64,000 bases of DNA from Rathayibacter sp. VKM Ac-2760 (GTDB lineage: Bacteria; Actinomycetota; Actinomycetes; Actinomycetales; Microbacteriaceae), in contig NZ_CP047173.1 of NCBI RefSeq assembly GCF_009834185.1, positions 1,391,725-1,455,724 on the forward strand, read 5' to 3'. The notes beneath the pieces were generated by a model, which was given only the letters and a program-made list of their open reading frames with translations, did no database searches and was not told the DNA's origin. Positions 3,999 through 46,094 of the stretch are shown here, one piece after another. The position numbers were made by a program, and so were the translations under genes. Position 1 is the first letter of the stretch. Every line of letters begins with the position of its first letter.

Positions 3999-4061
3999 CC
4001 GCGAGATGCCACTTGTGAGCGGGCGACACGGCGTGTCGCGCTCACAAGTGGCATCTCGCGG
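3999..4061. repeat. palindromic intergenic repeat, family 1 (copy 2); between convergent recQ and DUF2795 gene
   Basis: perfect 23-bp arms CCGCGAGATGCCACTTGTGAGCG / CGCTCACAAGTGGCATCTCGCGG around a 17-nt loop that is itself palindromic (GCGACAC/GTGTCGC). Confidence 0.9.
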
Positions 4062-4325: not shown

Positions 4326-5801
4326 TCAGGGCGTCGACGACGAGCGGATGCGCTGGACCATCTCGCTCGTGGAGTGCTCGGAGACGTAGCCCACCGTGGT
4401 GACGGTGCCGCCGTAGGAGCGGACGACCACCGCCTCCGCGAGCATGTCGGGGGCGTAGTCGCCGCCCTTCACGTAGACGTCGGGCCGCACGCGCTCGAGC
4501 AGCGGGATCGGGGTGTCGCCGCTGAACAGGGTGACGTAGTCGACGCAGCCCAGCTCGGCGATCACGCCCGCGCGGTCGCCCTCGGGGTTGATCGGGCGGC
4601 CCTCGCCCTTCAGCCGGCGCACCGAGTCGTCGTCGTTGACCGCGACGACCAGCACGTCGCCGAGCTCGCGCGCCTGGCGGAGGTAGGCGGTGTGGCCGCG
4701 GTGCAGCACGTCGAAGCAGCCGTTGGTGAAGACGATGCGGCGGCCGCGACGGGCCTGCTCGGCGAGCACCTCGACGAGGCCGTCCTCGCCGAGCACCACG
4801 GCGCCGGGGGCGGCGAGCGAGGCGAGCAGATCGTCCGCGGTGCAGACGGAGGTGCCGGGGCGCTGGACGACGACGTCGGCCGCGGCCTGCGCCAGGTCGA
4901 CGGCGGTCGCGAGCGAGCGGCCGGCGGCGAGGGCGAGAGTCGCGGTGGCGGCGAAGGTGTCGCCGGCTCCGGAGGCCTGCTTCTCCTCCGCGGGCTGGGC
5001 GAAGGTGCGGCTGACCGTGCCGTCGGCGTCGAGCGCGGTCGAGCCGTCGCGGTCGAGAGTGACCACGACGTGCCGGGCGCCGGAGCGCTCGCGCAGGCGG
5101 CCAGCCGCGGCGCGGACGGCGGCGGCGCGCTCGGCGCCGCGGCCGAGCGGAGTGCCGAGGAGGCGCTCCGCCTCCTTCGCGTTCGGGGTGACCAGGTCGG
5201 GCGCCGCGAAGGCCCAGTCGGCGAGCTCGTGCGCATCGATCACGAGGAGTCCGGGGCGCTGCACGGCGAGCACGCGCTCGATCGCGGCGCGGAGGATCCC
5301 GGAACCGTAGTCGCAGACGAGCACGGCGTCGGCGCCGTCGGCCGCGCGGACGGCGGCCTCGGCGAGCTCGGTCAGCTCGGGGTCGGACGGGCGGTGCGGA
5401 CCGGAGTCGACGCGCAGCATCACGCTGTCGCCGCCGACGACGCGGGTCTTGATCGTGGTCGAGGCGTCGCTCCGGACGATCGCGCCGGTGTCCAGGCCGG
5501 CGCGCTCGAGCGCGGCGAGGAGGCGGTCGCCCTCGGCGTCGCGGCCGGCGACCCCGACCGTGCGCACCTCGGCGCCGAGCGCCCGCAGGTTCGCCGCGGT
5601 GTTGGCCGCACCGCCGGCGACATCGACGACGTCCTCGAGGCGCAGCACGGGCGCGGGCGCCTCGCGGGTGACCCGCTCGGCCTCGCCGAGCCACCAGGAG
5701 TCGAGGATGAGGTCGCCGACGACGGCGACGACCGGCGGCCGCTCGCGCACGTGCGCGACCAGCGCGCTCGCCCGCTGCAGCGCGGAGCCCTCGAGGCTCA
5801 T
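4326..5801 (-). CDS. hldE: bifunctional D-beta-D-heptose 7-phosphate kinase / D-beta-D-heptose 1-phosphate adenylyltransferase
   Basis: N-terminal pfkB kinase domain (GAGDTF) plus C-terminal cytidylyltransferase domain (FTNGCFDVLHRGH...RRLKG); ATGA overlap with upstream ALDH. Confidence 0.88.
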   Translation of the reverse strand: MSLEGSALQRASALVAHVRERPPVVAVVGDLILDSWWLGEAERVTREAPAPVLRLEDVVDVAGGAANTAANLRALGAEVRTVGVAGRDAEGDRLLAALERAGLDTGAIVRSDASTTIKTRVVGGDSVMLRVDSGPHRPSDPELTELAEAAVRAADGADAVLVCDYGSGILRAAIERVLAVQRPGLLVIDAHELADWAFAAPDLVTPNAKEAERLLGTPLGRGAERAAAVRAAAGRLRERSGARHVVVTLDRDGSTALDADGTVSRTFAQPAEEKQASGAGDTFAATATLALAAGRSLATAVDLAQAAADVVVQRPGTSVCTADDLLASLAAPGAVVLGEDGLVEVLAEQARRGRRIVFTNGCFDVLHRGHTAYLRQARELGDVLVVAVNDDDSVRRLKGEGRPINPEGDRAGVIAELGCVDYVTLFSGDTPIPLLERVRPDVYVKGGDYAPDMLAEAVVVRSYGGTVTTVGYVSEHSTSEMVQRIRSSSTP

Positions 5802-7240
5802 CGCGCGCCGCCGGGCAGGACGGGGAGGCCGAAGTGCACGACCGTGGTCGTGGTCATCTCGTCGAGCAGCTCCGGGCCGTAGCCGAAGCCCGAGCCGCTG
5901 GTGCCGCGCGGCTGCGCGCTGCCGCCGGGGGCGCCGCCGAAGACGCCGTTGATCTTGACGGTGCCGACGGGGAGGGTCGCCGCGGCGCGGTGCGCGTGCT
6001 CCATGTCGGCGGTGAGCACGGTGGCTGCGAGGCCGTAGGGGCCGGCGGCGGCGCGGGTGAGCGCCTCGTCGAAGGAGTCGACGACGAGGATCGGGGCGAC
6101 GGGGCCGAAGGTCTCCTCGGTCATCACCAGCATCTCGTCGGTGCAGTCGGCGAGGACGGTAGCGGGGTAGAAGGTGCCGTCGCCGGGGGTGCCGCCGGTG
6201 AGGGCGCGGGCGCCGTCGGCGACGGCGGCGGAGACGTGCTCGTGCACGGCGTCGCGCATCCGCTCGTCGACCAGGCGGGGGAGGGGGCCGGCGCTCCAGC
6301 GCTCGGCCTCGGCGACCAGGGCGGCGGTGAAGTCCTCGGCGACGTCGCGGTGCAGGTAGATCCGCTCGACGGAGGTGCAGATCTGGCCCGCGTTGGCGAA
6401 GGCGCCGAGGGCGGCCTGCTCGGCGGCCCAGACCGGGTCGACGTCGCGGTCGACGACGAGCGCGTCGTTGCCGCCGTTCTCGAGGATGGTGTGCGCGCCG
6501 GTGACGGCGGCGATGCGGGCGAGGGCGCGGCCGGTGGCGGTCGAGCCGACGTGCGCGAGGACGTCGACGCCCTCGGTGCGGGCGAGGGCGTCGCCCACGG
6601 CGCCGTCGCCCTCGACCAGGGTCAGCACGCCCTCGGGGAGCGCCTCGGCGAGGATCGAGGTGAAGAGCGCGCCGGTGCCGGGGCTGCGCTCGCTGGGCTT
6701 GTGCACGACGACGTCGCCGGAGACGATCGCGGCGCCGAGCATCCCGGCGGCGACGGCGACCGGGTCGTTCCAGGGGGTGAGCGCGAGGACGACTCCGCGC
6801 GGGTGCGGCAGGGCGAGGTCGACGTTCAGGGCGCCGCCGCGCAGGCTCCTGCCGCGGTGCAGCGGGCCGAGCTCGGCGTACTGCAGCAGGGTGTCGACGC
6901 CGGCGCGGACGCCGCCGAGGGCGTCGCCGGCGGGCTTGCCGGTCTCCTCGGTGTTGAGGTCGGCGAGCTCCTGCTCGCGGGCGGCCACAGCGTGGGCGGC
7001 GGCGCGCAGCAGGGCGCCGCGCTCGGCGGGAGCGGTGGCGGCCCAGGTGGGGAAGGCGGCGCGGGCGCGGGAGACGGCGTCGGCGGCGAGGTCGGCGGGG
7101 GCGCCGGTGGTGCCGGCGGCGGGGGTCGCGGTGTCGATGGTCACGGTCACCTCTCGGTCGGAGGCGTCCGCAGGGGTCGCGGACGCTGATGCCCTCGTCC
7201 GATACCCGCGCGGCGGCGGCTCAAACGGATGGCTCGTCAC
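5798..7240 (-). CDS. aldehyde dehydrogenase family protein (start probably internal to this ORF)
   Basis: ALDH motifs (ENGGNDALVV, FANAGQICTSVER, EETFGPV); first in-frame start overlaps a palindromic repeat so true start uncertain. Confidence 0.8.
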   Translation of the reverse strand: MTSHPFEPPPRGYRTRASASATPADASDREVTVTIDTATPAAGTTGAPADLAADAVSRARAAFPTWAATAPAERGALLRAAAHAVAAREQELADLNTEETGKPAGDALGGVRAGVDTLLQYAELGPLHRGRSLRGGALNVDLALPHPRGVVLALTPWNDPVAVAAGMLGAAIVSGDVVVHKPSERSPGTGALFTSILAEALPEGVLTLVEGDGAVGDALARTEGVDVLAHVGSTATGRALARIAAVTGAHTILENGGNDALVVDRDVDPVWAAEQAALGAFANAGQICTSVERIYLHRDVAEDFTAALVAEAERWSAGPLPRLVDERMRDAVHEHVSAAVADGARALTGGTPGDGTFYPATVLADCTDEMLVMTEETFGPVAPILVVDSFDEALTRAAAGPYGLAATVLTADMEHAHRAAATLPVGTVKINGVFGGAPGGSAQPRGTSGSGFGYGPELLDEMTTTTVVHFGLPVLPGGAR

Positions 7241-7305
7241 AACATCAGCTGAGAAGGCGACTCATCGCCGATGAGCGATGAGCCCCCGATTCAGCTGATG
7301 TTCTG
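7238..7305. repeat. palindromic intergenic repeat, family 2 (copy A)
   Basis: CACAACATCAGCTGAGA ... TTCAGCTGATGTTCTG terminal inverted repeats between GNAT-AIRS gene end and ALDH. Confidence 0.8.
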
Positions 7306-7320: not shown

Positions 7321-8706
7321 TCAGGCCGCGCCGAGGCGGGTGACGGCGGAGGTGATCGCCGGGGTGCTCGCGCCGTCGGGCCAGCGGAGGGTGACGCCCT
7401 CGCCGGGGACGACGCGGCCGATGGCGGCGGTGGCGCTGTGCGGGGTGCCCATCCGGGAGGCGCCGGGGCGGTCGGCGGTGAGCATCGCGAAGCCGGGGAA
7501 GCAGGAGAGCCAGTCGGCGAGGCCGGCGGCGGAGGGGCGGGGGATCGCGGCGACCTCGAGCTCGGCACCCGCCCCGGACGCCTCCGCGAGCATGCCGACG
7601 GTGCCGACGAGCCCGGCCATGCTGACGTCCTTCGCGCCGTCGGGAGCGCAGGCGCCGACGCTCGCAGCGAGGGCGCGGAGCACCTCCGGCGGGCGGCCGG
7701 AGGTCGAGTCCCACTGCAGTCCCGCGTAGCCCGGGCGCCACGCGCCGGAGAGGTCGGCGGTCAGGCTCAGCTGGTGTCCGATCGGGGCGCTGCCCGGGAC
7801 CGGGCGCGCGGTGCGGCCGAGGCCGGTGACCGAGAGCGCGGCGGGCACTCCGAGCTGGGTGTGGCCGCCGAGCAGTGGCACGCCCCAGGCCTCGCTGCCG
7901 GCGCGCAGGCCGCGGAGGATGCGGGCGGCGAAGGAGGCGTCCCGCGCGCCGACCGCGTCGAGCAGGCCGACCGGATCGGCGCCCATCGCGGTGAGGTCGT
8001 TGACGTTGACGAGCACCGAGCACCAGCCCGCCCACTCCGGGTCGCGCTCGACCATCGAGGGGACGATCGCGTCGCAGACGGCGACGAGGTCGGAGCCGGG
8101 GACGGGCGCGCCGTCGTCGCCGCGGAAGCCCGGGCCGCCGAGCTGGCCGGCGAACGCGTCGAGCAGCGGACCGAGGGCGGCCTTGGCCCCGCGAGCGAGG
8201 CGGTCGAAGCGGTCGATCGGCCAGCGCATCCGCACGTGCGGGACGCCGGCCACCTCCGCCGTGCCGAGGCGGTCCCAGCCGAGCCGGCGGAAGAGCACCT
8301 CGTTCTGGGTCTGCACCGTCGCCTCGAAGCGGAGCACGCCGCGCGCCTCGGCCTCGGCGCAGGCGGCCCGGACCAGCGCGGCACCGAGGCCGGCGCCGCC
8401 GCGGGCGCTGCGGCGGACGACCAGGCGACTGCCGGTCCACCAGCCCAGATCGTGCTCCAGCGCGGGCGCGATCCGCACGCCACCGAGCACGCCGTCGGCC
8501 GAGCGCGCGACCAGGACGACCGTGCGCGGATCCTCGTCGAGAGTGTCGCGGTCGTCGGCGTCGAAGAGGCCCTGCTCGGCGACGAAGACCTCGCGGCGCA
8601 GCGCCCGGTAGGCGGCCACCTCGGCCGGGTCCGCGACCACGACCACGAAGGCCTCGCGGGCAGCCGGCGCGACCGCGCGGACCCCCTCGAGGATCGAGAG
8701 CTGCAT
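7321..8706 (-). CDS. fusion protein: MSMEG_0567-type GNAT N-acetyltransferase + AIR-synthase-related (sll0787-type) domain; Nit1C-cluster NitE-NitF equivalent
   Basis: in-frame continuous ORF from MQLSILEG...; GNAT core (RIAPALEHD...GAGLGAALV) followed by PurM-like domain; ATGA overlap with upstream radical SAM gene. Confidence 0.75.
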   Translation of the reverse strand: MQLSILEGVRAVAPAAREAFVVVVADPAEVAAYRALRREVFVAEQGLFDADDRDTLDEDPRTVVLVARSADGVLGGVRIAPALEHDLGWWTGSRLVVRRSARGGAGLGAALVRAACAEAEARGVLRFEATVQTQNEVLFRRLGWDRLGTAEVAGVPHVRMRWPIDRFDRLARGAKAALGPLLDAFAGQLGGPGFRGDDGAPVPGSDLVAVCDAIVPSMVERDPEWAGWCSVLVNVNDLTAMGADPVGLLDAVGARDASFAARILRGLRAGSEAWGVPLLGGHTQLGVPAALSVTGLGRTARPVPGSAPIGHQLSLTADLSGAWRPGYAGLQWDSTSGRPPEVLRALAASVGACAPDGAKDVSMAGLVGTVGMLAEASGAGAELEVAAIPRPSAAGLADWLSCFPGFAMLTADRPGASRMGTPHSATAAIGRVVPGEGVTLRWPDGASTPAITSAVTRLGAA

Positions 8707-9851
8707 CAGGCGCCGGCGGTCTTCAGCACGCCGCAGGCGCCGCAGGCCGCGCAGCCCGCCTTCTGGCCGGAGGAGAGCATCCCCGCCGCGATCAGCAGCG
8801 CGGCGACCTGCTCGCTCACCTTCTCCAGCAGCGAGCCGGCCGGCGGCAGGACGTGGTCCACCTCCGTCGCGAGCGTGCCCCTGAGCGGCCGGAACGGCAC
8901 CACGAACGGGTAGATCCCGCGCTCGATCAGCTCGCCGGCGCTCGCGACCAGCTCGTCGGGATCCTCGCCGAGGCCGACGAGCAGGTAGGTCGAGACCTGG
9001 TTGCGGCCGAAGATCCGCACCGCCTCGTCCCAGGCCTCCCAGTACTTCGCGGTCGAGACGCGCGCCTTGCCGGGGGTCCAGCGGCGGCGGATGTCGTCGT
9101 CCATCGACTCGATGTGGATGCCGATCGAGAGGGCGCCGGCGTCCTTCAGCTCCTGCAGCGCGGCGAGGTCCTCCGGCGGCTCGCACTGCACCTGGATCGG
9201 CAGCCCGGGCACGGCCTCGAGCACAGCGCGGACGCAGCGGGCGAGGTGCCGGGCGCCGCGGTCGCGACCCTTCGAGGTGCCGGTGGTCATCACCATCTGG
9301 CGGATGCCGTCCAGCCGGGCGGCTGCCTCGGCGACCTCGGCGAGCTGCGCGGGGGTCTTCACGGCGATGGTGGAGTCGTTGGCGAGCGAGGCCTCGATCG
9401 CGCAGAAGCGGCAGCGCTCGGCCGCGTCGTAGCGCATGCAGGTCTGCACGACGGTGGTGGCGAGGATGTTCCGGCCGTGCAGGCGGGCGATCTTCTCGTA
9501 GGAGACGCCGTCGGCGGTGCTGAGGTCGTAGAAGCGCGGGCGCTTCACCGGCTCCACGTCGAGGCCGATGTCGGCGCCGTCGAGCAGGAGCCGGCCGTTG
9601 GTCACGGCGTAGGGGCTCTTCGGGTTGACGGGGATGGCGGCGCCGAGGCCGCCGAGCATCACGTGGCCGTCGTCGCTCGGGCCGGCGCCCGCCTCGCGGT
9701 GCACGGGGGCGTCGACGCGGATGCCCTGCAGGGCGATGTCGACGCGGGTGCGCAGGGCGGACGGGGCGGCTCCGCAGCCGGAGTCGGCGGGAGCGGTGTC
9801 GGTCGGGGCACTGTCGATGGTGCGGAGGCGGGGCATCTGCAGGTCGGTCAT
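8706..9851 (-). CDS. radical SAM protein, MSMEG_0568 / NitD family
   Basis: CRFCAIE Cys motif (radical SAM CxxxCxxC-like) and C-terminal GCAACGACG tail; position in Nit1C-type cluster. Confidence 0.8.
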   Translation of the reverse strand: MTDLQMPRLRTIDSAPTDTAPADSGCGAAPSALRTRVDIALQGIRVDAPVHREAGAGPSDDGHVMLGGLGAAIPVNPKSPYAVTNGRLLLDGADIGLDVEPVKRPRFYDLSTADGVSYEKIARLHGRNILATTVVQTCMRYDAAERCRFCAIEASLANDSTIAVKTPAQLAEVAEAAARLDGIRQMVMTTGTSKGRDRGARHLARCVRAVLEAVPGLPIQVQCEPPEDLAALQELKDAGALSIGIHIESMDDDIRRRWTPGKARVSTAKYWEAWDEAVRIFGRNQVSTYLLVGLGEDPDELVASAGELIERGIYPFVVPFRPLRGTLATEVDHVLPPAGSLLEKVSEQVAALLIAAGMLSSGQKAGCAACGACGVLKTAGA

Positions 9852-10017
9852 GGTGCTCCTCGGATTCTCGAGTCGAGCGGTGCGCGACGGCGAGTCCGAC
9901 GTCGTGAGCCTCCATTAGGTCAACGCGGTGTTTCGGAGCGATGACATCGGGAACGCGATCGTGTTACATCCGGCGGCCGCCCCGGAGCCCGCCCGGCGTC
10001 ACGCAGGCTTCTTCTGG

Positions 10018-10038
10018 CCGAAACCACTTCGAAACACG
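10018..10038. promoter_or_regulatory. candidate GlnR-type box (GAAAC-n6-GAAAC) in divergent promoter region of the Nit1C cluster
   Basis: sequence CCGAAACCACTTCGAAACACG in the 380-bp divergent intergenic region; resemblance to actinobacterial GlnR half-sites is inference only. Confidence 0.25.
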
Positions 10039-10229
10039 AGCGGCCTTGACTGGACGCAGTCGGGACGAACGCTCCCGACCCGGCCCCGTCGCTCCGCTCG
10101 CCCTCGAACCGCCCCGAGCGACGCCGGCCTCTGCATCACAGCACCGCCCGTTCCACCCGGCACTCCTGTCCCTGCACCACTCGCTCGCGCCCCGCCCGGC
10201 GCGCTCCTCACCGAACCCCGGAGGTTCCC

Positions 10230-10799
10230 ATGACCGACGACCAGACCACCCCCGCCGACGTCAGCACGGACGACCAGGCCGCGATCGAAGAGCAGATCAG
10301 CGCCAACATCGAGAAGTCGCGCGGCGAGATCGCGCACCCCTCGCTGCCCAAGGGCAGCAACCTCTACGGCTCCACCAAGGTCTTCCCCGACTACCAGGCC
10401 GAGCCCGGGCAGTCCTACTTCACCCTCGTGCACGGCATCGCGCACGAGTCCTCGGTCAGCTTCGTCGCGATCCTGCAGGCGACCCGCGCGGCCCGCAAGG
10501 GCTTCGAGTCGGCCGTCTACTTCTACGGCCCCGGCACGATCAACGCGATGGCGACCCGTGGCTTCCCGACGGTCGGCGACTCCGGCTTCCCGGGGGAGCA
10601 GAACATCAACGACGCCCTGAAGACCTTCATCGACGAGGGCAACCGCGTCTTCGTCTGCCGCTTCGGCATGGCGCTGCACGGCCTGCGCGAGGAGGACCTG
10701 ATCGAGGGCACCATCCCCTGCCACCCGCTCGACGTGCAGGACGCCGTCATCCACTACGCCCGCAAGGGCGCCATCATCAACTCGACCTACAACCTCTAG
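10230..10799 (+). CDS. Sll0783 / MSMEG_0572-family nitrogen-starvation-response protein (Nit1C Hp1/NitB-like)
   Basis: 189-aa ORF with good RBS (GGAGG), immediately upstream of nitrilase as in sll0783-sll0784. Confidence 0.6.
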   Translation: MTDDQTTPADVSTDDQAAIEEQISANIEKSRGEIAHPSLPKGSNLYGSTKVFPDYQAEPGQSYFTLVHGIAHESSVSFVAILQATRAARKGFESAVYFYGPGTINAMATRGFPTVGDSGFPGEQNINDALKTFIDEGNRVFVCRFGMALHGLREEDLIEGTIPCHPLDVQDAVIHYARKGAIINSTYNL

Positions 10800-10808
10800 G
10801 CCGCCGCC

Positions 10809-11687
10809 ATGACCGTCGTCGGATCGGTCGCGGCGAACTTCACCCGCGACCTCGATCAGAACTACGCGCTCATCGCCGCGCTGGCCGAGGAGGCCCGGGA
10901 GAAGCGGGTCGAGTTCCTCGTCCTGCCCGAGGCCGCGATCGGCGGCTACCTCTCCTCGCTCGGCAATCACGGCGACACCGTCAAGACGACGACCCGATCG
11001 ATGCCACCGGCGATCGCGCTGGACGGGCCGGAGCTGCGCCGGGTGCAGGAGATCGCGGGCGACCTGCTGGTCGCGATCGGCTTCTGCGAGCTCGACGAGG
11101 ACGGCGAGACCCGCTACAACGCGGCCGCCCTGCTCGACGGCGGGCAGATCTACGGCAGCTACCGCAAGGTGCACCAGCCGCTCGGCGAGCACATGTCCTA
11201 CTCGCCCGGGCCCGGCTACTCGGTCTTCGAGACGCCGGTCGGCCGGGTCGGGCTGCAGATCTGCTACGACAAGGCCTTCCCGGAGGCGGCCCGCTCGATG
11301 GCGCTGGACGGGGCGGAGATCATCGCCTCGCTCTCGGCCTGGCCGGCCGCGCGGACGGCGACGGCGGAGAACCTGCAGGAGGACCGCTGGACCTACCGCT
11401 TCAACCAGTTCGACATCGCGCGGGCCCTGGACAACCAGGTGTTCTGGCTGGCGTCGAACCAGTCCGGCACCTTCGGGTCGCTCCGCTACGTGGGCAACGC
11501 GAAGGTCGTCGATCCGGGCGGCAACATCCTCGCGACGACGCTGCTCGGCTCCGGCATGGCGGTCGCCGACATCGACGTGCGGGGCACCTTCGAGGCGATG
11601 CGCGGCGGGATGTTCCACCTGCGCGACCGCCGGCCGGACGCCTACGACATCGACCGCGTCTGGAGCGGAGGGCTGGTCCATGCCTGA
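10809..11687 (+). CDS. nitrilase, Nit6803/Nit1C family (carbon-nitrogen hydrolase)
   Basis: intact E-K-C triad contexts: LVLPEAAIGGY, YRKVH, LQICYDKAFPE. Confidence 0.85.
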   Translation: MTVVGSVAANFTRDLDQNYALIAALAEEAREKRVEFLVLPEAAIGGYLSSLGNHGDTVKTTTRSMPPAIALDGPELRRVQEIAGDLLVAIGFCELDEDGETRYNAAALLDGGQIYGSYRKVHQPLGEHMSYSPGPGYSVFETPVGRVGLQICYDKAFPEAARSMALDGAEIIASLSAWPAARTATAENLQEDRWTYRFNQFDIARALDNQVFWLASNQSGTFGSLRYVGNAKVVDPGGNILATTLLGSGMAVADIDVRGTFEAMRGGMFHLRDRRPDAYDIDRVWSGGLVHA

Positions 11688-12000
11688 GATGACCTTCCAC
11701 GTCCGCTGGCCGGACGGCGTCGAGGAGCGCTGCTACTCGCCGAGCCTGGTGATGCACGACTACCTCGCCGAGGGCGAGAGCTATCCGCTCGAGGACTTCG
11801 TCGGGCGCTCGACCGAGGCGCTGCGGCTGGCCAGCGAGCGGGTGCGCGCGAAGTTCGGCTTCGCCTGCACCTCCGCGCTGCAGCAGGAGTCGGAGATCGT
11901 CGCGGCCGCCGCGCGCTTCGACGGCGGGCGGGTGCGGGTGCTGGCGATGGATCCGCCGCTGCCGTCCGCTGCTCCGACCGTGCAGGGGACGCGCGCATGA
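11680..12000 (+). CDS. small MSMEG_0570-family protein (Nit1C Hp2/NitG-like)
   Basis: 106-aa ORF overlapping nitrilase stop and flavoprotein start; position conserved in cluster. Confidence 0.55.
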   Translation: MPEMTFHVRWPDGVEERCYSPSLVMHDYLAEGESYPLEDFVGRSTEALRLASERVRAKFGFACTSALQQESEIVAAAARFDGGRVRVLAMDPPLPSAAPTVQGTRA

Positions 12001-13271
12001 CCGCGCTCGAGAACGGCCGGCACCTGCCGGTCGCCGTGATCGGCGCCGGTCAGGCCGGGCTGTCGATCAGCCGCCTGCTCACGGACGAGGGCGTCGAGCA
12101 CCTCGTGATCGAGCGCGACACGATCGCGCACGACTGGCTCGACCGCCGCTGGGACAACTTCACCCTCGTCACGCCGAACTGGCAGTGCCGGCTCCCGGGT
12201 TACCCCTACGACGGCGACGACCCGCACGGCTTCATGACCCGCGACGAGGTGCACGCCTGGGTGCGGCGCTACGCGGAGTCGTTCGACGCTCCGGTCGTGG
12301 AGGACACCGAGGTGCTGCGGCTGCGCGAGGGCGCGGACGGGGCCTTCGAGATCGTCACCTCGCGCGGCACGATCACGGCCGACCAGGTCGTCGTCGCGAC
12401 CGGCGGCTACCACCGGCCGGTGCTGCCGGCGGTCGCGCACCGCATCCCGGACTCGGTCGTGCAGCTGCACTCGGCCGACTACCGCTCGGCCGCGGCGCTG
12501 CCCGAGGGCGGGGTGCTCGTGGTCGGCTCCGGCCAGTCCGGCGCGCAGATCGCGGAGGACCTCTTCCTCGAGGGGCGCGCCGTGCACCTGGCGCTGGGGA
12601 CCGCTCCGAGAGTCGCCCGGTTCTACCGCGGGCGGGACTGCGTCGCGTGGCTCGCCGACATGGGCGTCTACGACGTGCCGGTGCACGCGCAGGTGGGCGG
12701 GCTCTCGAAGCGGGAGTCGACCAATCACTACGTCACCGGGCGCGGCGGCGGGCGGGATATCGACCTGCGGGCGTTCGCGCGCGACGGGATGCACCTCTAC
12801 GGGCGGCTGCAGCAGGTCGACGGTGCGTCGCTCCGGTTCGCGCCGACGGCCGAGGCGTCGCTCGACTACGCGGACTCGGTCGCCGAGTCGATCAAGAACG
12901 ACATCGACGCCTACATCGAGCGCTCGGGCGTGCAGGCGCCGACCGAGGCCCGCTACACCCCGGTCTGGCGGCCGGAGCGCGAGATCGAGGAGCTGGACCT
13001 GGCGGCCGCCGGGATCACGAGCATCGTCTGGGCGGTCGGCTTCCGCGCCGACTACTCCTGGATGCAGATCGGCGTCTTCGACGGCGCCGGGCACCCCACC
13101 CACCGCCGCGGCGCGACCGCGGTGCCGGGGCTGCACTTCCTCGGGCTGCCGTGGCTGAACACCTGGGGCTCCGGCCGCTTCGAGGCGATCGCGCGGGATG
13201 CGGAGCACGTGGTGCAGCAGCTGCTCGGCGGCGCGCGGTTGGACCGGTTCGAGGGCGCCGCGGTACGGTGA
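11997..13271 (+). CDS. FAD/NAD(P)-binding oxidoreductase, MSMEG_0569 / NitH family
   Basis: two dinucleotide-binding motifs (VAVIGAGQAG; VLVVGSGQSGAQIAED), flavin monooxygenase-like. Confidence 0.8.
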   Translation: MTALENGRHLPVAVIGAGQAGLSISRLLTDEGVEHLVIERDTIAHDWLDRRWDNFTLVTPNWQCRLPGYPYDGDDPHGFMTRDEVHAWVRRYAESFDAPVVEDTEVLRLREGADGAFEIVTSRGTITADQVVVATGGYHRPVLPAVAHRIPDSVVQLHSADYRSAAALPEGGVLVVGSGQSGAQIAEDLFLEGRAVHLALGTAPRVARFYRGRDCVAWLADMGVYDVPVHAQVGGLSKRESTNHYVTGRGGGRDIDLRAFARDGMHLYGRLQQVDGASLRFAPTAEASLDYADSVAESIKNDIDAYIERSGVQAPTEARYTPVWRPEREIEELDLAAAGITSIVWAVGFRADYSWMQIGVFDGAGHPTHRRGATAVPGLHFLGLPWLNTWGSGRFEAIARDAEHVVQQLLGGARLDRFEGAAVR

Positions 13272-13352
13272 CGGCCGCGCGCTCGCCCCGGGCGCGCCTC
13301 CGGCCGCTCGTCCGGCCGCTCGTCCGGCCGGGCGGGGCGAGAGAAGAGGACC

Positions 13353-14207
13353 ATGTCGAGCATCACCCTGGCCGCGGTCGCGGCGCACTTCGGCCGCGAT
13401 CTCGAGCGCACCCTCGTCAAGCTGCCCGGCATGATCGCGAGCGCGCAGGAGCGCGGGATCGACCTGCTGGTGCTGCCCGACGCGACGCTCGGCGGCTACC
13501 TGCTCGACATGCACCACCCCGGCCCGGACGACCTGCCGCAGGCCGTGGAGGTCGACGGGCCGGAGGTCGCCGCGGTCGCGGCGATGGCGGGGGACACGAC
13601 GGTGTGCTTCGGCATCGCCGAGCGCGCGCTCGAGGGCGGCGAGGTCCGCCGCTACAACTCGGCGGTCTGCGTGCAGGGCGGCCGGGTGATCGGGACGCAC
13701 CGGAAGGTGCACCTGCCGCTGGGCGAATCGGAGGCGTACGCGGCGGGCGACGCGTTCCGCTCCTTCGACTCCGCGGTCGGGCGGATCGGGATGATGATCG
13801 ACTTCGACAAGACCTTCCCCGAGTCGGCGCGCTCGCTGGCGCTGGACGGGGCGGAGATCCTCTGCTGCCTCAGCGCCTGGCCGGCCAGCGTCACCGACCG
13901 GTCCGACCGGATCCGCAACGACCGGCAGGCGCACCTGTTCGACCTCTACGACTGCGCGCGCGCCGCCGAGAACCAGGTCTACCTGGTGTCCTCGAACCAG
14001 ACAGGCGTGCTCGGCGGGCTGCGCTTCCTCGGGCAGGCGAAGGTCGTCGATCCGGCCGGCGAGATCATCGCGAAGACGTGGGCGAAGGGCGGGCTCGCGG
14101 TCGCGACGGACGACGTGTCCGCGTCCGTGGCGCGAGCCCGGCGGAGCATGGACCACCTGCGGGACCGCGCCGTGCACGCGTACCACGGGGCGGCGCCCAC
14201 CGGCTGA
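13353..14207 (+). CDS. carbon-nitrogen hydrolase family protein, paralog of the nitrilase with degenerate catalytic triad (D-K-D)
   Basis: aligns to upstream nitrilase but has LVLPDATLGGY (Glu->Asp) and MIDFDKTFPE (Cys->Asp); Lys motif HRKVH retained. Confidence 0.8.
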   Translation: MSSITLAAVAAHFGRDLERTLVKLPGMIASAQERGIDLLVLPDATLGGYLLDMHHPGPDDLPQAVEVDGPEVAAVAAMAGDTTVCFGIAERALEGGEVRRYNSAVCVQGGRVIGTHRKVHLPLGESEAYAAGDAFRSFDSAVGRIGMMIDFDKTFPESARSLALDGAEILCCLSAWPASVTDRSDRIRNDRQAHLFDLYDCARAAENQVYLVSSNQTGVLGGLRFLGQAKVVDPAGEIIAKTWAKGGLAVATDDVSASVARARRSMDHLRDRAVHAYHGAAPTG

Positions 14208-14278
14208 CCCGGCCGGCCTGCCCGCCCGGCTGCCCGGCCCCGCTGCCCACCCGCCCGCTCGATCGAGAAGGAGACCCC

Positions 14279-15385
14279 GTGCGGATCGCGCAGCTGACCT
14301 ACTCCACCAGGCCCCGCGGCGGCGTGGTGCACACGCTCGCGCTCTCGGAGGCGCTGGCCCGGCGCGGGCACGAGGTGACCGTCTGGACGCTCGGCCGCGG
14401 CGGTGACTCCGCCTTCTTCCGCGCGGTCGATCCCGCCGTGGCGGTCCGGGTCGTGCCGTTCGCGGCGCGAGAGGGCGAGAGCGTCGGCGACCGGATCGTC
14501 CGCTCCCTCGATGCGCTCGCGGCCGGGCTCGCGGCGACGGGCGGGACGGAGTGGGACGTCGTGCACGCGCAGGACTGCATCTCGGCCAACGCCGCGCTCC
14601 GTGCCGGCGCCGCCGGACCGGGCGGGCTGCTGCGCACCGTGCACCACCTCGATGAGTTCACGACGCCGGCGCTGATCGACTGCCACGAGCGCGCGCTCAC
14701 CGGGCCGGCCGCGCTGCTCGCGGTCTCGGCGTCGGTCGCGGGCGACGTCGCCGCAGGCTGGGGCCGCGAGCCGACCGTGATCCCGAACGGCGTCGACGCC
14801 GCGCGCTTCGCCGCCGCCGCGGGCGGCCAGGGGGTCGCCGAGTGGCGGGCCGAGCTCGGCCGCTACGTGCTCGCGCTCGGCGGCATCGAGCCGCGGAAGG
14901 GCAGCGTCGACCTGCTGGCGGCGTTCGCGGGACTCGCGCCCGGCACGGTGCTCGTCTTCGGCGGCGGGGAGACGCTGTTCGACTACCGGGGCTATCGCGA
15001 GGAGTTCGAGCGCCGGGCGGCCGAGCTGGGGGTGACGCCGGTCGTGCTCGGCACGGTGCCCGAGGAGCGGCTCGCAGCGCTCGTCGCCGGCGCGGCGGTG
15101 CTCGGCTTCGTCTCGACCAAGGAGGGCTTCGGCCTCGCGGCGATGGAGGCGCTCGCCGCGGGGGTGCCGGTCGTCGCGCGCGATCTGCCGGTGCTGCGCG
15201 AGGTGTTCGGCGGGACGGTGGCGTACGGGAGCGACGTGGCGGGCATCCGGGCGGCGCTGGCCGCGGCGCTCGCGGGGGAGGCGCCGGACCCGCGGCCCGG
15301 GCGGGAGCTGGCCTTCTCGCACTCCTGGGACGACGTCGCCGCGAGCCACGAGGCCCTGTACCGGTCGCACGCGAGCGCCGCCTGA
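14279..15385 (+). CDS. GT4 glycosyltransferase, MSMEG_0565 family
   Basis: GTG start after GAGAAGGAGA RBS; GT4 E-x7-E region (EGFGLAAMEALAAGVPVV). Confidence 0.8.
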   Translation: MRIAQLTYSTRPRGGVVHTLALSEALARRGHEVTVWTLGRGGDSAFFRAVDPAVAVRVVPFAAREGESVGDRIVRSLDALAAGLAATGGTEWDVVHAQDCISANAALRAGAAGPGGLLRTVHHLDEFTTPALIDCHERALTGPAALLAVSASVAGDVAAGWGREPTVIPNGVDAARFAAAAGGQGVAEWRAELGRYVLALGGIEPRKGSVDLLAAFAGLAPGTVLVFGGGETLFDYRGYREEFERRAAELGVTPVVLGTVPEERLAALVAGAAVLGFVSTKEGFGLAAMEALAAGVPVVARDLPVLREVFGGTVAYGSDVAGIRAALAAALAGEAPDPRPGRELAFSHSWDDVAASHEALYRSHASAA

Positions 15386-16800
15386 TGCGCCGCTCGTTCT
15401 CGCGCTGCTTCTCGGCGCTCGCCGCGGAGGATCCCGAGCGGGTCGTGGTCGTCGCGGACGACGCGACGCTCACCGCGGGCGCCCTGGACCGGGCCTCGAA
15501 CCGGCTCGCGCGCGCCTACGCGGCGCGGGGCGTCACTCCGGACTCGCTCGTCGCGGTCTCGCTGCCGAACTCGGCCGAGCTGGTGCTGGCCTGCGCCGCG
15601 ATCTGGAAGGCGGGCGCGACGCCGCAGCCGCTCTCGCGCGGGCTCTCGGCGCGGGAGCTCGCCGAGGTCGGCGCGCTCGGGCGGCCCACGCTGAGCGTCG
15701 GCGTCGAGCTGGAGGGCGTGCCGTTCGTCCCCGCCGGCTTCGAGCCCGACCCGGCGCTGCCGGACGACGAGCTGCCGGATCTCCGGGCGGCGTCGTGGAA
15801 GGCGCCCGCCTCCTCCGGCAGCACCGGTCGGCCGAAGATCGTTCTCGCGGCGGCTCCCGCGCTGATGGACCCGACGCAGCCGGTCGCGGCCTTCCTGCCG
15901 CGGGAGGGGGTGCAGCTCGTGGCCGGGCCGCTCACCCACTCCGCGACCTTCACCTACGCGTTCCGCGGGCTCCTGACCGGGCAGCGGCTGGTGATCCTGC
16001 CGCGCTTCGACGAGGCGCGGGTGCTCGCCGCGATCGCGGCGCACCGGGTGACCTGGGCGCTGCTGGTGCCGACGATGATCCACCGGCTGCTGCGGACGCC
16101 CGCGCACCGGGACGCGGACGTGTCGTCGCTCGAGACGGTGCTGCACCTGGGCTCGCCGTGCCCGCCCGCGGACAAGCGCGCGCTGATCGACTGGGTCGGG
16201 GCGGAGAAGGTGGTCGAGGTCTACGCGGGCAGCGAGTCGAACGGGCTGACGATGATCCGCGGCGACGAGTGGCTGGAGCGGCCCGGCAGTGTCGGCCGGC
16301 CGATCGGCGGCACGGAGCTTCGGGTGCTGCGCCCGGACGGGACGGAGTGCGCGGTCGGTGAGCCGGGGCGGGTCTGGCTGAAGCGCGGCGAGCCGACCTA
16401 CCGCTACCTCGGCGGGGAGTCGAAGCGGACGGAGGACGGCTGGGACACGCTCGGCGACGTCGGCTCGGTCGACGCCGACGGCTACCTGACCGTGCTCGAC
16501 CGGGCCGACGACCTGATCCTGCGCGGCGGGGTGAACGTCTACCCGGCGGAGATCGAGCGGGTGCTGGAGGAGCACCCGGCGGTGCGCGGGGCGGTCGCGT
16601 ACGGCGTCCCGGATGCGGAGCTGGGCCAGGCGATCGAGGCGGTGGTCGACATCGCGGACGCCGCAGTGACGGCGGAGGAGCTGCTCGCCTTCGCGCGCGA
16701 GCACCTCGGCTCACGCGCGCCGCGGGCGCTGCGGCTCCAGCGCTCGCCGCTGCGCGACGACGCGGGCAAGGTGCGGCGCGCGGCGCTCGCGGACGACTGA
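15385..16800 (+). CDS. AMP-dependent synthetase/ligase (adenylate-forming enzyme)
   Basis: ATGA overlap with GT; motifs SSGSTGRPK, YAGSE, GWDTLGDVG, ILRGGVNVYP. Confidence 0.85.
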   Translation: MRRSFSRCFSALAAEDPERVVVVADDATLTAGALDRASNRLARAYAARGVTPDSLVAVSLPNSAELVLACAAIWKAGATPQPLSRGLSARELAEVGALGRPTLSVGVELEGVPFVPAGFEPDPALPDDELPDLRAASWKAPASSGSTGRPKIVLAAAPALMDPTQPVAAFLPREGVQLVAGPLTHSATFTYAFRGLLTGQRLVILPRFDEARVLAAIAAHRVTWALLVPTMIHRLLRTPAHRDADVSSLETVLHLGSPCPPADKRALIDWVGAEKVVEVYAGSESNGLTMIRGDEWLERPGSVGRPIGGTELRVLRPDGTECAVGEPGRVWLKRGEPTYRYLGGESKRTEDGWDTLGDVGSVDADGYLTVLDRADDLILRGGVNVYPAEIERVLEEHPAVRGAVAYGVPDAELGQAIEAVVDIADAAVTAEELLAFAREHLGSRAPRALRLQRSPLRDDAGKVRRAALADD

Positions 16801-16848: not shown

Positions 16849-16919
16849 GCACAACATCAGCTGAGAGGTGGGTCCCTCCCCCCACAGCGGAGGCCCTCCC
16901 TTCTCAGCTGATGTTGTGC
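16849..16919. repeat. palindromic intergenic repeat, family 2 (copy B)
   Basis: GCACAACATCAGCTGAGA ... TCTCAGCTGATGTTGTGC. Confidence 0.85.
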
Positions 16920-18133: not shown

Positions 18134-18196
18134 CCGCGAGATGCCACTTATGAGCGGCGACACCGGCGTGTCGCGCTCATAAGTGGCATCTCGCGG
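18134..18196. repeat. palindromic intergenic repeat, family 1 (copy 3) between convergent genes
   Basis: CCGCGAGATGCCACTTATGAGCG...CGCTCATAAGTGGCATCTCGCGG; G->A change in left arm matched by C->T in right arm. Confidence 0.9.
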
Positions 18197-37569: not shown

Positions 37570-37638
37570 CACGACGTCAGCTGAGGCACCGGCTCAACGC
37601 CGATGGTGGATGACGAGCGGTCTCAGCTGACGTCGTGC
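37570..37638. repeat. palindromic intergenic repeat, family 2 (copy D)
   Basis: GCACGACGTCAGCTGAGG ... TCTCAGCTGACGTCGTGC. Confidence 0.8.
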
Positions 37639-37661: not shown

Positions 37662-39038
37662 TCAGGAGCGGTCCGCGTCCGAGCTCTCGGCCGCCGCGGT
37701 CTGCTCCGCGTGCTTCTTCTTGCCGAGGCGGGTCGCCAGGAAGAGCAGCGTGCCGACCACGACGTAGCCGGCGGTGCCCAGCCAGACCACGCCGGTCTGC
37801 TGGGTCAGCAGCACGGCGCTCGTGATGATCGCCAGCACCGGCACGACGCGCGGCACCGAGAAGTGCGGGTGGTCGACGCGGTCCTTCTTCAGCACCAGCA
37901 CCGAGACGTTCGCCGAGATGAAGACCAGGAGCAGCAGCAGCACGGTCGTCTCGGCGAGGGTTCCGACGTCGCCGACCAGGCTCAGCGCGGCGGTCGCGCC
38001 GCCGACCACGACGATCGACACCCACGGCGTGCGGCGGTTCGGCAGCACCCGGCCGAATGCGCTCGGCATCAGCCCCGACTTCGCCAGCCCGAAGCCGACC
38101 CGGCTCGCCATCACCATGAACAGCAGCGCGCCGTTCGCGATCGCGATCAGCGCGATCAGGCCGAACAGCCACGGCGGCACCGCCACTCCGCTCGCCGCGA
38201 CCACGTCGAGCAGCGGGCCCGTCGACTCCGCGAGCTCCTCGTTCGGCAGCACGATCACCGCGCCGAGGGCGATCAGCAGGTAGACGACGGCGGCGGTGAT
38301 CAGTGCGCCGAAGAGCGCCCGCGGGTAGACCTTCGACGGGTTCCGCACCTCCTCCGCCATGTTGGCCGCCGCCTCGAAGCCGAGGAAGGAGAAGAAGGCG
38401 ACGATGGACGCGGCGAACGCGCCCTGCAGCGGAGCGACGTCGGGCGCGAACTCGAAGATCCGGCCCGGGTCGCCGTTGCCGCCACCGAAGAAGATCGCTG
38501 CGCAGACGATCACGATCACCAGTCCGCTCACCTCGATCACCGACGCGACCAGGTTCGCGGTGAGCGACTCCTTCACTCCGCGCAGGTTGATCAGCGTGAG
38601 GACCGCGATGAAGACGACGGCCGTCGGTGCGGCCGGCACGTCGAGCAGCGCGCCGAGGTAGTCGCCGGCGAAGGCGTTGGCGAGCGAGGCCGCGGTCGTG
38701 ATCCCGGACGCCATCATCAGGAAGCCGACGAGGAACGACAGGTACGGCTTGCCGAACGCCCGGTCGGCGTAGCGGGCGGCGCCGCCGGCGTGCGGGTACT
38801 TGGTGATCAGCTCGGCGTAGGTGCCGGCCGTCAGCAGGGCGATGACGAGCGCGATGAGCAGCGGCAGCCAGATCACGCCGCCGACGTCGGTGGCCATCGT
38901 CCCGACCAGCGTGTAGATGCCGGCGCCAAGCGTGTCGCCGACGATGAAGGCGAAGAGGAGCGGGCCGGTGATGACCTTCTTCAGCGATCCTCCGCCCTTC
39001 GCGGGGGCGGCGGACTCGGCGTTCGTGGTGTCGGTCAT
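37662..39038 (-). CDS. APC family amino acid permease
   Basis: 12-TM permease-like hydrophobic profile, APC motifs. Confidence 0.85.
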   Translation of the reverse strand: MTDTTNAESAAPAKGGGSLKKVITGPLLFAFIVGDTLGAGIYTLVGTMATDVGGVIWLPLLIALVIALLTAGTYAELITKYPHAGGAARYADRAFGKPYLSFLVGFLMMASGITTAASLANAFAGDYLGALLDVPAAPTAVVFIAVLTLINLRGVKESLTANLVASVIEVSGLVIVIVCAAIFFGGGNGDPGRIFEFAPDVAPLQGAFAASIVAFFSFLGFEAAANMAEEVRNPSKVYPRALFGALITAAVVYLLIALGAVIVLPNEELAESTGPLLDVVAASGVAVPPWLFGLIALIAIANGALLFMVMASRVGFGLAKSGLMPSAFGRVLPNRRTPWVSIVVVGGATAALSLVGDVGTLAETTVLLLLLVFISANVSVLVLKKDRVDHPHFSVPRVVPVLAIITSAVLLTQQTGVVWLGTAGYVVVGTLLFLATRLGKKKHAEQTAAAESSDADRS

Positions 39039-44172: not shown

Positions 44173-46014
44173 ATGGGCAAGAAGCGCAATCAGGGACGAT
44201 CCGGAGGCGGGCGCTCCGGCGGATCGGGCGGTCAGGGCGGCGGCCGCACGGCCGAGACCGCGCTGATGGTGCGGTTCCGCAGCTGGTACCGCTCCCACCT
44301 GGCCGACGTCGCCGTGATGCACGAGCACCTCGACGTCGACGAGGCCGTCGAGGTCCTCACCGATCTCTTCGCCATGACCCGCGACCTCCGCCCGCGCGGC
44401 TCGTTCGCCCAGCCCGACGCAGAGCTGCTCGAGGCCGTCTTCGACCAGATCGAGGCCGACCTCTCCGGTGAGGAGAGCGAGGCCGACCTCGACGACACCC
44501 TCTTCACCGTCGCCGAGGTGGTCGAGCACTTCCTCGACTTCCTCACCGACGAGGACCTCTGGACCGGCACCGACGAGGAGCTCGACGAGTGCCAGGCCGT
44601 GCTCGACGAGGTCCTCGACCTCGCCGGCTCCTTCGTCGAGGCCGTCCTCGACGACCTGCTCGAGGTCGACGAGGTCCCGGACGCCGAGATGCTCACCGCC
44701 GCCCGCGCCACCGCGCTCGTGCACGCCGCCGACGTCGTGGTCGAGCACCTCGCCGCGACCGCCGACGCGACGATCACTGAGCGCGCCGCCCGCGAGATCG
44801 TGGTCGAGGCGGGCATCTCCTCCGCCGGCTCGACCCCGAGCGACGACGCCGTCCGCATCCCCGTCTCGGCCTGGTGGGACGCGCTGGTCGCCTCCGACGT
44901 GCTCGAGACCGACGGCTCGACCGCGGGCCTCGGCGACGCCGCCCGGCCCTGGCGCAGCTCCGACGCTCGCGAGGCGACGGTCGAGCGCATCGCCTACATC
45001 GCCCGCTTCGTCGAGCAGTGGCTCGCCAGCTCGCAGGAGGCGCTCGCCGCCGCCGACACCGAGAACGGCGCCTTCTCGCCGCGCGAGCGCGCGATCACGA
45101 CGACCGACGCCGTCCTGGTGCGGATGGCCGTCGCCTGCCAGGCGCAGATCCACGAGGGCCTCGTCGTCGGCGAGCTGGTCGACGAGCTCGCCGCCGACCT
45201 CGACGTCTCGCTCGAGGAGGCGCTCGACGAGCGCGAGCGGATGGTCGGCTCGGCCGAGCGGATGCTCGACGACGCCGCCGAGCTCGGCCTGCTGCTGCAC
45301 TCGCCCGAGTTCGGCTACGTGCTGCCCGAGGGCCTGCAGCCCGTCCTCGCCTCGGTGGTCCGAGCGAGCATCGTGCTGCTCGGCGCCCGCGACGCGACCC
45401 GCCTCGAGATCCTCGACGAGGCGACGGAGGACACCGACGCCTCCTACGCCCTGCACGTCTCGCTCCTCGGCACCAAGCCGGTCGTCTGGCGCCGGCTCGA
45501 GCTGTCCTCGGAGTCGTCGCTGCGCGATCTGCACCTCGCGCTGCAGCTCTCGCTCGGCTGGACCGACGCGCAGCCGCACTACTTCAGCGTCGGCGTGCCC
45601 GACGAGGAGCGCGCGCCGATCGGCTCGCCGGCCGATGCCGAGGAGCTCGGCGCCGACCTGGTCGACGAGGGCGGCGTCGCGCTCGCCGAAGTGCTCGAGA
45701 GCGTCGACGACGAGCTGTTCTACGTCTACGACCTCGAGGACGAGTGGCGCCACGTCATCCGCCTCGAGTCGGTCTCGCCGCTGCGGGCCGCGCTGCCGCG
45801 CTGCACGGGGGCCCGGGGCGCCGCTCCGCTCGACGCCCCCGGTGGTCCGGCCGCGTGGGCCGACACGGTCCGAGCCGCGACCGATCCGGCCTCGGCCGAT
45901 CACGCGGAGGCGCTGGACGCCCTCGGCCTCGCCGCCGGGGCGACCTTCGACCCGGCGAGCGTCGACGTCGACGGCATCAACCGATCGCTCGGCCTGCTGC
46001 GCGCGGCGGTCTGA
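44173..46014 (+). CDS. hypothetical protein with highly acidic N-terminal region and C-terminal pRiA4b-ORF3-like domain
   Basis: C-terminal YALHVSLLGTKPVVWRRLELSSESSLRDLHLALQLSLGWTDAQPHYF matches PRiA4_ORF3 pattern; N-terminus G/R-rich then D/E-rich. Confidence 0.6.
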   Translation: MGKKRNQGRSGGGRSGGSGGQGGGRTAETALMVRFRSWYRSHLADVAVMHEHLDVDEAVEVLTDLFAMTRDLRPRGSFAQPDAELLEAVFDQIEADLSGEESEADLDDTLFTVAEVVEHFLDFLTDEDLWTGTDEELDECQAVLDEVLDLAGSFVEAVLDDLLEVDEVPDAEMLTAARATALVHAADVVVEHLAATADATITERAAREIVVEAGISSAGSTPSDDAVRIPVSAWWDALVASDVLETDGSTAGLGDAARPWRSSDAREATVERIAYIARFVEQWLASSQEALAAADTENGAFSPRERAITTTDAVLVRMAVACQAQIHEGLVVGELVDELAADLDVSLEEALDERERMVGSAERMLDDAAELGLLLHSPEFGYVLPEGLQPVLASVVRASIVLLGARDATRLEILDEATEDTDASYALHVSLLGTKPVVWRRLELSSESSLRDLHLALQLSLGWTDAQPHYFSVGVPDEERAPIGSPADAEELGADLVDEGGVALAEVLESVDDELFYVYDLEDEWRHVIRLESVSPLRAALPRCTGARGAAPLDAPGGPAAWADTVRAATDPASADHAEALDALGLAAGATFDPASVDVDGINRSLGLLRAAV

Positions 46015-46024
46015 GCTCGTCGCC

Positions 46025-46094
46025 GACAGAACATCAGCCGGGAGCGGACCTCCTCCACCATCGTGGACGAGGTCGCTTCTCAGCTGATCTTGTG
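46025..46094. repeat. palindromic intergenic repeat, family 2 (copy E) between convergent genes
   Basis: GACAGAACATCAGCCGGGAG ... CTTCTCAGCTGATCTTGTG with internal CCACCATCGTGGACG core. Confidence 0.75.

Follow-up and report, generated by a model that had tools for sequence, protein, structure and literature searches.

Five copies of a short palindromic repeat lie in the 64,000 nt stretch of Rathayibacter sp. VKM Ac-2760 DNA analysed here (the window; 74% G+C). They are best explained as members of a non-autonomous repeat family, found in our genome scan only in eight Rathayibacter genomes, whose behaviour matches that of REP/REPIN elements together with that of the mycobacterial TRIT hairpins; we place the probability of this reading at about 0.7. 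Copies of the 68 or 69 nt unit have arisen at unrelated sites with no duplication of the target. They are retained solely in the 3′ intergenic spacers of genes, a few nucleotides past the stop codon, which they sometimes supply themselves, and their arms have stayed constant while the interior drifted, the loop flipped or another subtype was swapped in. As a class, palindromic extragenic repeats (REP/REPIN-like) are well known, and it is the family that is new, not the kind of system. A full-text literature search found no published description of such repeats in Rathayibacter or in the Microbacteriaceae, to which an easily modelled palindromic repeat family is now added, and the 68–69 nt hairpin repeat is apparently undescribed so far.

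Structure and distribution of the repeat

In type A elements (68 nt), the 17 nt arm (CACAAC(G/A)TCAGCTGAGA) is followed by 7 variable nucleotides and an apex consisting of an 8 bp stem (TCATCCAC or TCGCGCAC) with a CATC loop, after which the stem, variable segment and arm return in mirror image. Type B elements (69 nt) have the same arms around AGGGGGTCCCTCC-CCCCACAG-CGGAGGCCCACCCT, and a variant, A′, has the arms CAGAACATCAGCCGGGAG. Outside the arms the consensus fades into CCG on the left and CGG on the right. The original prediction gave a length of 65–75 bp; the units are indeed short and palindromic, but they do not depart from the 68 nt of type A and the 69 nt of type B. The internal core GATGG(C/T)GGA(C/T)G that it described is also present, and is made up of the CATC/GATG apical loop and one strand of the stem below it, in either orientation. 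A loose regular expression applied to the window and the Rathayibacter loci (0.71 Mb) recovered 104 copies, all of 68 or 69 nt. All 202 arms in these sequences fall within such units, and within the 0.71 Mb searched neither solitary arms nor arms bracketing a longer element were found.

Pairing between the two halves is strongly maintained. Standard pairs occupy 82% of alignment cells, compared with 28–45% when the partners are slid by 1–3 columns. An alignment of 60 type A copies shows standard pairing in at least 90% of copies (52–60 of 60) at 13 of the 17 arm pairs and in 80–88% (48–53 of 60) at the other four. The observed covariation was reached by none of 500 shuffles. Three pairs of the apical stem switch from ATC:GAT to GCG:CGC, and the folding energy of real copies is −46.3 kcal/mol against −39.2 kcal/mol for chimeras. 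The 7+7 variable segments are weakly complementary (3.25 vs 2.81 pairs); strong covariation within them was considered and rejected, as the effect is weak and the segments mostly mark sub-lineages.

Each arm contains an 8 bp perfect palindrome, TCAGCTGA, and the two centres are about 46 bp apart. A link to a PvuII-type restriction system was discounted, CAGCTG not being avoided (33 observed vs 38 expected). A role of the arms as paired DNA-uptake sequences was likewise rejected, as they never occur singly in the 0.71 Mb, and sequestration of a Shine-Dalgarno sequence by the GGAGG/CCTCC of type B was dismissed because the start codons are too far away (about 70 nt for copy 2). The element ends (GCACAAC/GTTGTGC) resemble the consensus ends of integron attC sites (RYYYAAC/GTTRRRY), and an attC identity was rejected on the grounds that copies are 3–10 kb apart and do not form arrays of single-ORF cassettes.

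All five copies are present where they had been placed, a search with a 17-mer arm and a covariance model being in agreement. The 17-mer CACAACATCAGCTGAGA (up to 3 mismatches) gave 9 arm matches in the window against 0.04 expected, and none of 100 shuffled sequences gave as many; the claim that these are homologous elements and not chance hairpins holds, as does that of terminal inverted repeats of about 17 bp, which proved to be conserved inverted arms of 17 nt. The covariance model (R1) was built from 60 copies outside the window and run on the window with filters off. With element ends set at CAC...GTG, copy 1 (7238–7305, 68 nt, type A) has a degenerate right arm (ATTCAGCTGATGTTCTG), a hairpin MFE of −49.9 (z −6.6) and a model score of 66.9 bits. 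Copy 2, the flagged one (16850–16918, 69 nt, type B), has perfect 17 nt arms around the interior GGTGGGTCCCTCC-CCCCACAG-CGGAGGCCCTCCCT, with a z-score of −7.7 and a model score of 61.4 bits. Copy 3 (34112–34179, 68 nt) is a degenerate type A element with A′-like arms (CAGCCCGGAG / CTCAGCCGACG), a z-score of about −2 and 51.6 bits. Copy 4 (37570–37637, 68 nt, type A) shows a paired change in both arms, ACGTCAGC...GCTGACGT (z −5.3; 63.5 bits), and copy 5 (46027–46094, 68 nt, type A) has an A′-type left arm, CAGAACATCAGCCGGGA (z −4.6 / −5.3; 61 bits). Each copy forms a single long hairpin with RNA z-scores of −4.6 to −7.7 on both strands, copy 3 being the exception.

In the window, the model reached 50 bits or more at these five sites and nowhere else, so the earlier count of five is complete. 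The next-best scores (25–36 bits) belong to a different palindromic family, and lower ones are noise or chance hairpins; a match at 37898–37969 (19.7 bits) was rejected as a chance hairpin within a permease gene.

A scan of 185,579 species genomes for the exact pattern CAGCTGAGA-N25–45-CTCAGCTGAYGT, which among the window copies only copies 2 and 4 satisfy, returned 84 stretches. Three were low-G+C chance matches and 81 came from eight Rathayibacter genomes: R. tritici DSM 7486, R. agropyri VKM Ac-2828, VKM Ac-2630, -2754, -2856, -2857, -2879 and Leaf185. The notion of a repeat family was to be refuted by a lack of further copies elsewhere in the genome. It passed this test, as the covariance model found 101 sites in the 81 Rathayibacter blocks (648 kb). 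Just two of these lay outside the regular-expression set, which indicates that decayed copies are rare. The window is 80–94% identical to several of the element-bearing loci and identical to none of them. A phage or plasmid origin was discarded, there being no match in viral contigs and none in PLSDB plasmids. Rfam at gathering thresholds detected one tRNA in the window and nothing matching the element, and at E ≤ 1 it found nothing in four element-bearing loci. Strains of the plant-associated R. tritici group could be typed by means of the family.

Copying to new sites and persistence at old ones

Within both R. tritici and VKM Ac-2856, paralogues on different contigs are identical at 62–65 of 68 positions, variable segments included, while their flanks match at chance level (10–19 of 40). 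The boundaries of this similarity fall within a few bases of CAC...GTG. What has reached new sites by copying is thus a discrete unit, and since the near-identical paralogues also share the variable segments, the latter are markers of sub-lineages. No empty orthologous site was recovered, the Rathayibacter loci having been chosen by presence of the element, and insertion is deduced from the paralogues and not seen directly. Essentially the sole difference between one pair of near-identical paralogues (L033 and L049) is an inverted 4 nt loop (CATC to GATG), so inversion across the perfect apical stem can affect the loop independently. The loop also flips alone between orthologues.

The elements had been described as MITE/REP-like, with a search for target-site duplications proposed as a check. 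None of 3 bp or longer exceeded the shuffled expectation, the counts for k = 3 to 8 being equal to it (5 vs 5.4, 1 vs 1.9, etc.), and there was none at the recently copied paralogues of R. tritici and VKM Ac-2856. An apparent CG on both sides is part of the inverted CCG...CGG preference and is not a direct repeat. Insertion into the centre of pre-existing palindromes was rejected as well: flank complementarity is barely above that of shuffled pairings (76 vs 69, 56 vs 48), and so reflects the consensus CCG...CGG and not copy-specific targets.

A classical MITE would have arisen by deletion from an insertion sequence of the DDE type, whose terminal inverted repeats it would retain and whose transposase, encoded elsewhere in the genome, would mobilise it in trans. 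It would share with the present element its 17 nt terminal inverted repeats, small size, absence of coding capacity and dispersal among unrelated flanks. This origin is nevertheless very improbable, given that duplications of 3–8 bp stay at chance level and are absent at recent paralogues, that the flanking preference is inverted and not direct, that the length of the unit is rigid (68 or 69 nt) and that decayed copies are very rare; in 0.71 Mb there is also neither a solo arm nor an arm-bounded long element, and the ORFs between paired copies are not transposases. A transposase located between paired copies was considered for the L058 and L034 intervals and rejected, as both hold unrelated lower-G+C ORFs. 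What stands of the MITE/REP-like description is thus its second half, the elements being extragenic, hairpin-forming and multi-copy; the first half is not supported, there being no target-site duplication and, in the 0.71 Mb covered, no parent element or adjacent transposase found.

Other mobile hairpins offer partial parallels. Correia/NEMIS elements of Neisseria and ERIC/IRU elements of enterobacteria are likewise intergenic, with terminal inverted repeats and a hairpin that spans the whole element in transcripts, and they are often co-transcribed with flanking genes, as is predicted for the Rathayibacter element. Correia elements are 100–155 bp long with a TA target duplication, and ERIC elements, of about 127 bp, are variable in length, unlike the Rathayibacter element, which is rigidly 68 or 69 nt and leaves no duplication.

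One of the two closest matches in behaviour is to the REP/REPIN systems of Proteobacteria. A REP is an imperfect palindrome of 20–40 nt that also occurs as a singlet, and a REPIN is an inverted doublet of REPs; the cognate RAYT (TnpA_REP, a Y1 HUH transposase) is encoded by a single-copy gene usually flanked by the repeats. The Rathayibacter family shares with them a short, extragenic, hairpin-forming and non-coding unit without target-site duplication, tens to hundreds of copies per genome, lineage-specific sequence types, copying within genomes combined with long vertical persistence, and mosaic arrays as in BIMEs. It differs in that its 17 nt arms hold only the 8 bp palindrome TCAGCTGA and are unable to fold alone, with no conserved GTAG-type 5′ tetranucleotide and no REP-type stem-loop; the arms are never singlets, and a conserved apical stem-loop lies between them. 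The host is a high-G+C actinobacterium, and no RAYT occurs among the sampled ORFs (about 2% of each genome). The REP-associated RAYT groups that have been discussed are from Proteobacteria (PMC5581495). No transposase was found next to the copies, and phmmer searches of the 6,033 ORFs of the window and 84 loci (about 2% of each genome) with single-sequence queries for YafM, IS608 TnpA and IS200 TnpA returned no match at E ≤ 10, which is a weak test of limited reach. With no RAYT among the sampled ORFs and arms that are not REP-like palindromes, strict membership of the REP/REPIN class is unproven.

The mosaic arrays occur in VKM Ac-2856 and -2857, where the element is combined with other palindromic repeats. 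Between two convergent genes of VKM Ac-2856 (L008, 4931–5523), a 203 bp unit is repeated 2.9 times, each unit combining one type B element with another hairpin repeat, about 115 nt long (GGTCGAGTAGCC..GCGTATCGAGA). Arms belonging to this second family were counted 61 times across 26 loci, so that several repeat families together form a mosaic resembling a BIME. In another arrangement, type B is directly followed by A′.

Once in place, the element is passed on by vertical descent, as 42 pairs of orthologous copies show. One site is occupied in five species, and the site of copy 5 is also occupied in R. tritici (L020) and VKM Ac-2879 (L013). The arms of orthologous pairs are identical at 27–34 of 34 positions (at least 29 in 38 of the 42 pairs), and they stay this alike even where the flanks, mostly coding, are about 80% identical. 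Interior identity is 77–100% where the flanks are at least 90% identical, and 44–79% (15–27 of 34) for type A pairs with flanks of 80–88%; it tracks flank identity, which argues for descent and not reinsertion.

Subtypes can nonetheless change at a fixed site. The site of copy 4 holds type A in the window and type B in VKM Ac-2856/-2857, with the same boundaries and flanks 86–90% identical, and the site of copy 2 holds type B in the window and type A in R. tritici (L048). One subtype dominates in each lineage. Such an exchange of types A and B within identical boundaries is concerted evolution or in-place replacement, and might come about either by arm-guided gene conversion or by excision and refilling of the same site. 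Together with the lone loop flips, in-place subtype replacement makes the family a tractable case for the concerted evolution of dispersed hairpins.

As to how the unit spreads, copying would probably proceed through a single-stranded DNA hairpin, by an enzyme that leaves no duplication. The precedent is an HUH/Y1 enzyme of the RAYT type, which would fit both the lack of duplication and the hairpin shape, with none found in the sample of about 2%. Gene conversion guided by the arms may be an alternative or additional route, serving both copying and homogenisation.

Placement at the 3′ ends of genes

All five window copies lie outside genes, as had been noted, and no copy in the window or the loci is inside a called gene. 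Copies face 127 gene 3′ ends and 49 gene 5′ ends, and 63% of the facing 3′ ends are within 30 nt of the copy, mostly at 2–18 nt. Convergent spacers are occupied most often (38 of 96), compared with 30 of 335 tandem and 7 of 96 divergent spacers (chi-square p = 3e-14). Copies 1, 2, 4 and 5 follow this general placement. Copy 1 is 15 nt downstream of the TGA (7321–7323, minus strand) of the GNAT/AIRS gene of a Nit1C-like cluster, and upstream of an ALDH gene. Copy 2 starts 49 nt past the TGA (16798–16800) of an AMP-binding enzyme gene, with a GT9 glycosyltransferase gene downstream. Copy 4 is 24 nt past the stop (37662–37664, minus strand) of an amino-acid permease gene, and a GNAT gene lies just downstream of the copy. 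Copy 5 sits between convergent genes, 12 nt past a TGA at 46012–46014 and 26 nt from the stop of a minus-strand Zn-dehydrogenase gene (46121).

At 11 sites, 8 of them independent, the TGA of the arm itself is the stop codon. Reading into the arm gives CAC AAC GTC AGC TGA (...HNVS*), and the C-termini take the form ...(H/Q/P)N(V/I/L)(S/G)*. No gene ends inside the element in another frame; if the frame were random the probability of this would be about (1/3)^8. Since the element supplies stop codons at some genes, annotation pipelines will show element-derived ...HNVS* C-termini.

The hairpins are not canonical intrinsic terminators, a possibility that was rejected because they are G+C-rich hairpins without a U-tract: no T-run lies 3′ of them, and none of the five window copies is called terminator-like. 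Canonical terminator-like sites are at chance level in this 74% G+C DNA. In vitro, termination by mycobacterial RNA polymerase fails at hairpins that lack a U-tract (PMC3993855), which, with the missing U-tract, makes a simple terminator role doubtful; simple intrinsic termination by the element is unlikely. Copies 1, 2 and 4, which are in tandem-gene contexts, and copy 5 when read from its upstream gene, first suggested that the loop would be CCAUCG in the mRNA. An RNA function tied to the direction of transcription was rejected, as loop orientation is random (7 vs 7 in tandem contexts; 58 copies). Folding energy shows no strand bias either, and with random loop orientation nothing points to a sequence-dependent role at the RNA level.

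The other close match in behaviour is the TRIT ("tuberculosis Rho-independent terminator") motif of Mycobacterium (Gardner et al. 2011; PMC3152330), a conserved, bidirectional palindrome with 147 copies, confined to one genus and positioned tightly at stop codons. Both families are conserved palindromic hairpins of an actinobacterial host, present in about 10^2 copies in one genus, bidirectional, without a canonical U-tract, and placed narrowly at the stop codon, which they sometimes overlap. Their sequences differ, however, and the Rathayibacter element matches neither Rfam nor any other model. The TRIT centre is at about −8, inside the coding sequence, whereas the Rathayibacter element mostly starts 2–30 nt past the stop and in a minority of cases supplies the stop at −15. 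The terminator activity of hairpins of the TRIT kind is disputed (PMC3993855). The Rathayibacter element is TRIT-like in behaviour only. Taken with mycobacterial TRIT, it suggests that high-G+C actinobacteria without canonical terminators repeatedly acquire sequence-conserved hairpins at stop codons.

The tight placement at stop codons and the enrichment between convergent genes could instead mean that the element is a functional 3′-end signal of the host, either a factor-dependent terminator or a TRIT-like stabilising or processing hairpin, spread by selection and not by selfish copying. The constancy of the arms would then come from a factor that recognises their double-stranded sequence, and their conservation above the level of coding flanks, the chance level of canonical terminators and the TRIT precedent in another actinobacterial genus all agree with this. 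As a replacement for copying it is a possible but unlikely account. Selection alone does not account for paralogues that are near-identical at unrelated sites, variable parts included, and leaves the tandem and mosaic arrays unexplained, and some copies in tandem contexts lie upstream of gene starts. A host role is compatible with a REP/REPIN-like, TRIT-like repeat and not exclusive of it.

A further alternative places the function in duplex DNA, with the two TCAGCTGA palindromes as operators or as sites for a nucleoid protein, gyrase or recombinase, the hairpin being incidental. The presence of a perfect 8 bp palindrome in each arm, an excess of TCAGCTGA in the loci (188 observed vs 110 expected) and the irrelevance of loop orientation, as expected for recognition of double-stranded DNA, would fit. 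The excess, however, arises because the elements themselves carry about two per copy, and the arms never occur singly. The close orthologues L050 and L071 differ by a paired arm change (ACGT..ACGT vs ACAT..ATGT), and such compensatory changes, which keep the arm and apical pairing, would be needless for independent duplex sites. Depletion of the element from divergent spacers, which hold promoters, weighs against this alternative too, and we regard it as improbable.

Returning to the element as a mobile repeat kept at gene ends, transcription from either side would form a stem of about 30 bp at the 3′ end of the mRNA, directly behind the stop codon. The likeliest roles predicted for this stem are a barrier to 3′-exonucleases, an RNase III-type processing site or a factor-assisted terminator. 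More speculatively, and at rather low probability, the family may be an actinobacterial counterpart of REPINs: an enzyme not yet linked to such repeats would recognise the 17 bp arms, copy the unit without duplication and, in the manner of homing, overwrite a resident subtype within identical boundaries, and/or a termination or processing factor would recognise the sequence of the arms in double-stranded RNA, as proposed for TRIT.

Variable segments and neighbouring repeats

The family marks the ends of genes, and it also flanks variable clusters on both sides, as with the Nit1C-like cluster of the window. This cluster (7321–16800, 9.5 kb) encodes a radical SAM protein, a GNAT+AIRS protein, two CN-hydrolases (nitrilases), a flavin monooxygenase, a GT4 glycosyltransferase and an AMP-binding enzyme, and its outer neighbours are the ALDH gene and an hldE-like gene on one side and the GT9 gene on the other. 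One element had been placed exactly at the boundary of the Nit1C operon and the ALDH-hldE genes; this is copy 1, and copy 2 occupies the opposite end of the cluster. In R. tritici (L048, 1913–2440), only a 145-aa ORF without a Pfam match and a single element lie between ALDH and GT9, so the Nit1C-like cluster is a variable insert bordered by one copy on either side.

Copy 3 lies in a 1.2 kb segment (33680–34875) that is absent from the orthologous junction of VKM Ac-2856, where 26 nt separate the two convergent genes. The segment has an AT-richer promoter-like stretch and an 87-aa RHH (ribbon-helix-helix, CopG family) gene overlapping an 80-aa ORF without a Pfam match, which together look like a toxin-antitoxin pair. 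Next to it, a minus-strand gene (34876–36594) encodes a protein with a Schlafen group 3-like DNA/RNA helicase domain (PF09848, E = 3e-66), and gene order around this gene differs between the window and VKM Ac-2879 (L013). The gene ahead of copy 5 (44173–46014) encodes a 613-aa protein with a C-terminal PRiA4_ORF3 (plasmid pRiA4b ORF-3-like) domain.

In R. agropyri (L058), two identical copies with a disrupted apical stem (…CCACCATGACGTCTGAACC…), at 5335–5402 and 7535–7602, bracket 2.1 kb of lower-G+C DNA encoding a 408-aa ORF; the bracketed stretch may be a duplicated or composite segment.

Two other kinds of repeat were seen in the window. A different palindromic family of about 61–65 nt, with arms CGCGAGATGCCACTTGTG / CACAAGTGGCATCTCGCG about 25 nt apart, occurs at 2007–2067, 4000–4060, 18135–18195 and 58532–58592 and in 9 Rathayibacter loci; its 25–36 bits on the hairpin model are due solely to its being a long stem. 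Between 27350 and 28200, inverted units of about 46 nt (CGGCTCGCAGAATGACGTCCGGCTCGC...) alternate in a long tandem array whose period is about 92 nt, and similar arrays are present in VKM Ac-2856 and -2857 (L023, L026 and L041).
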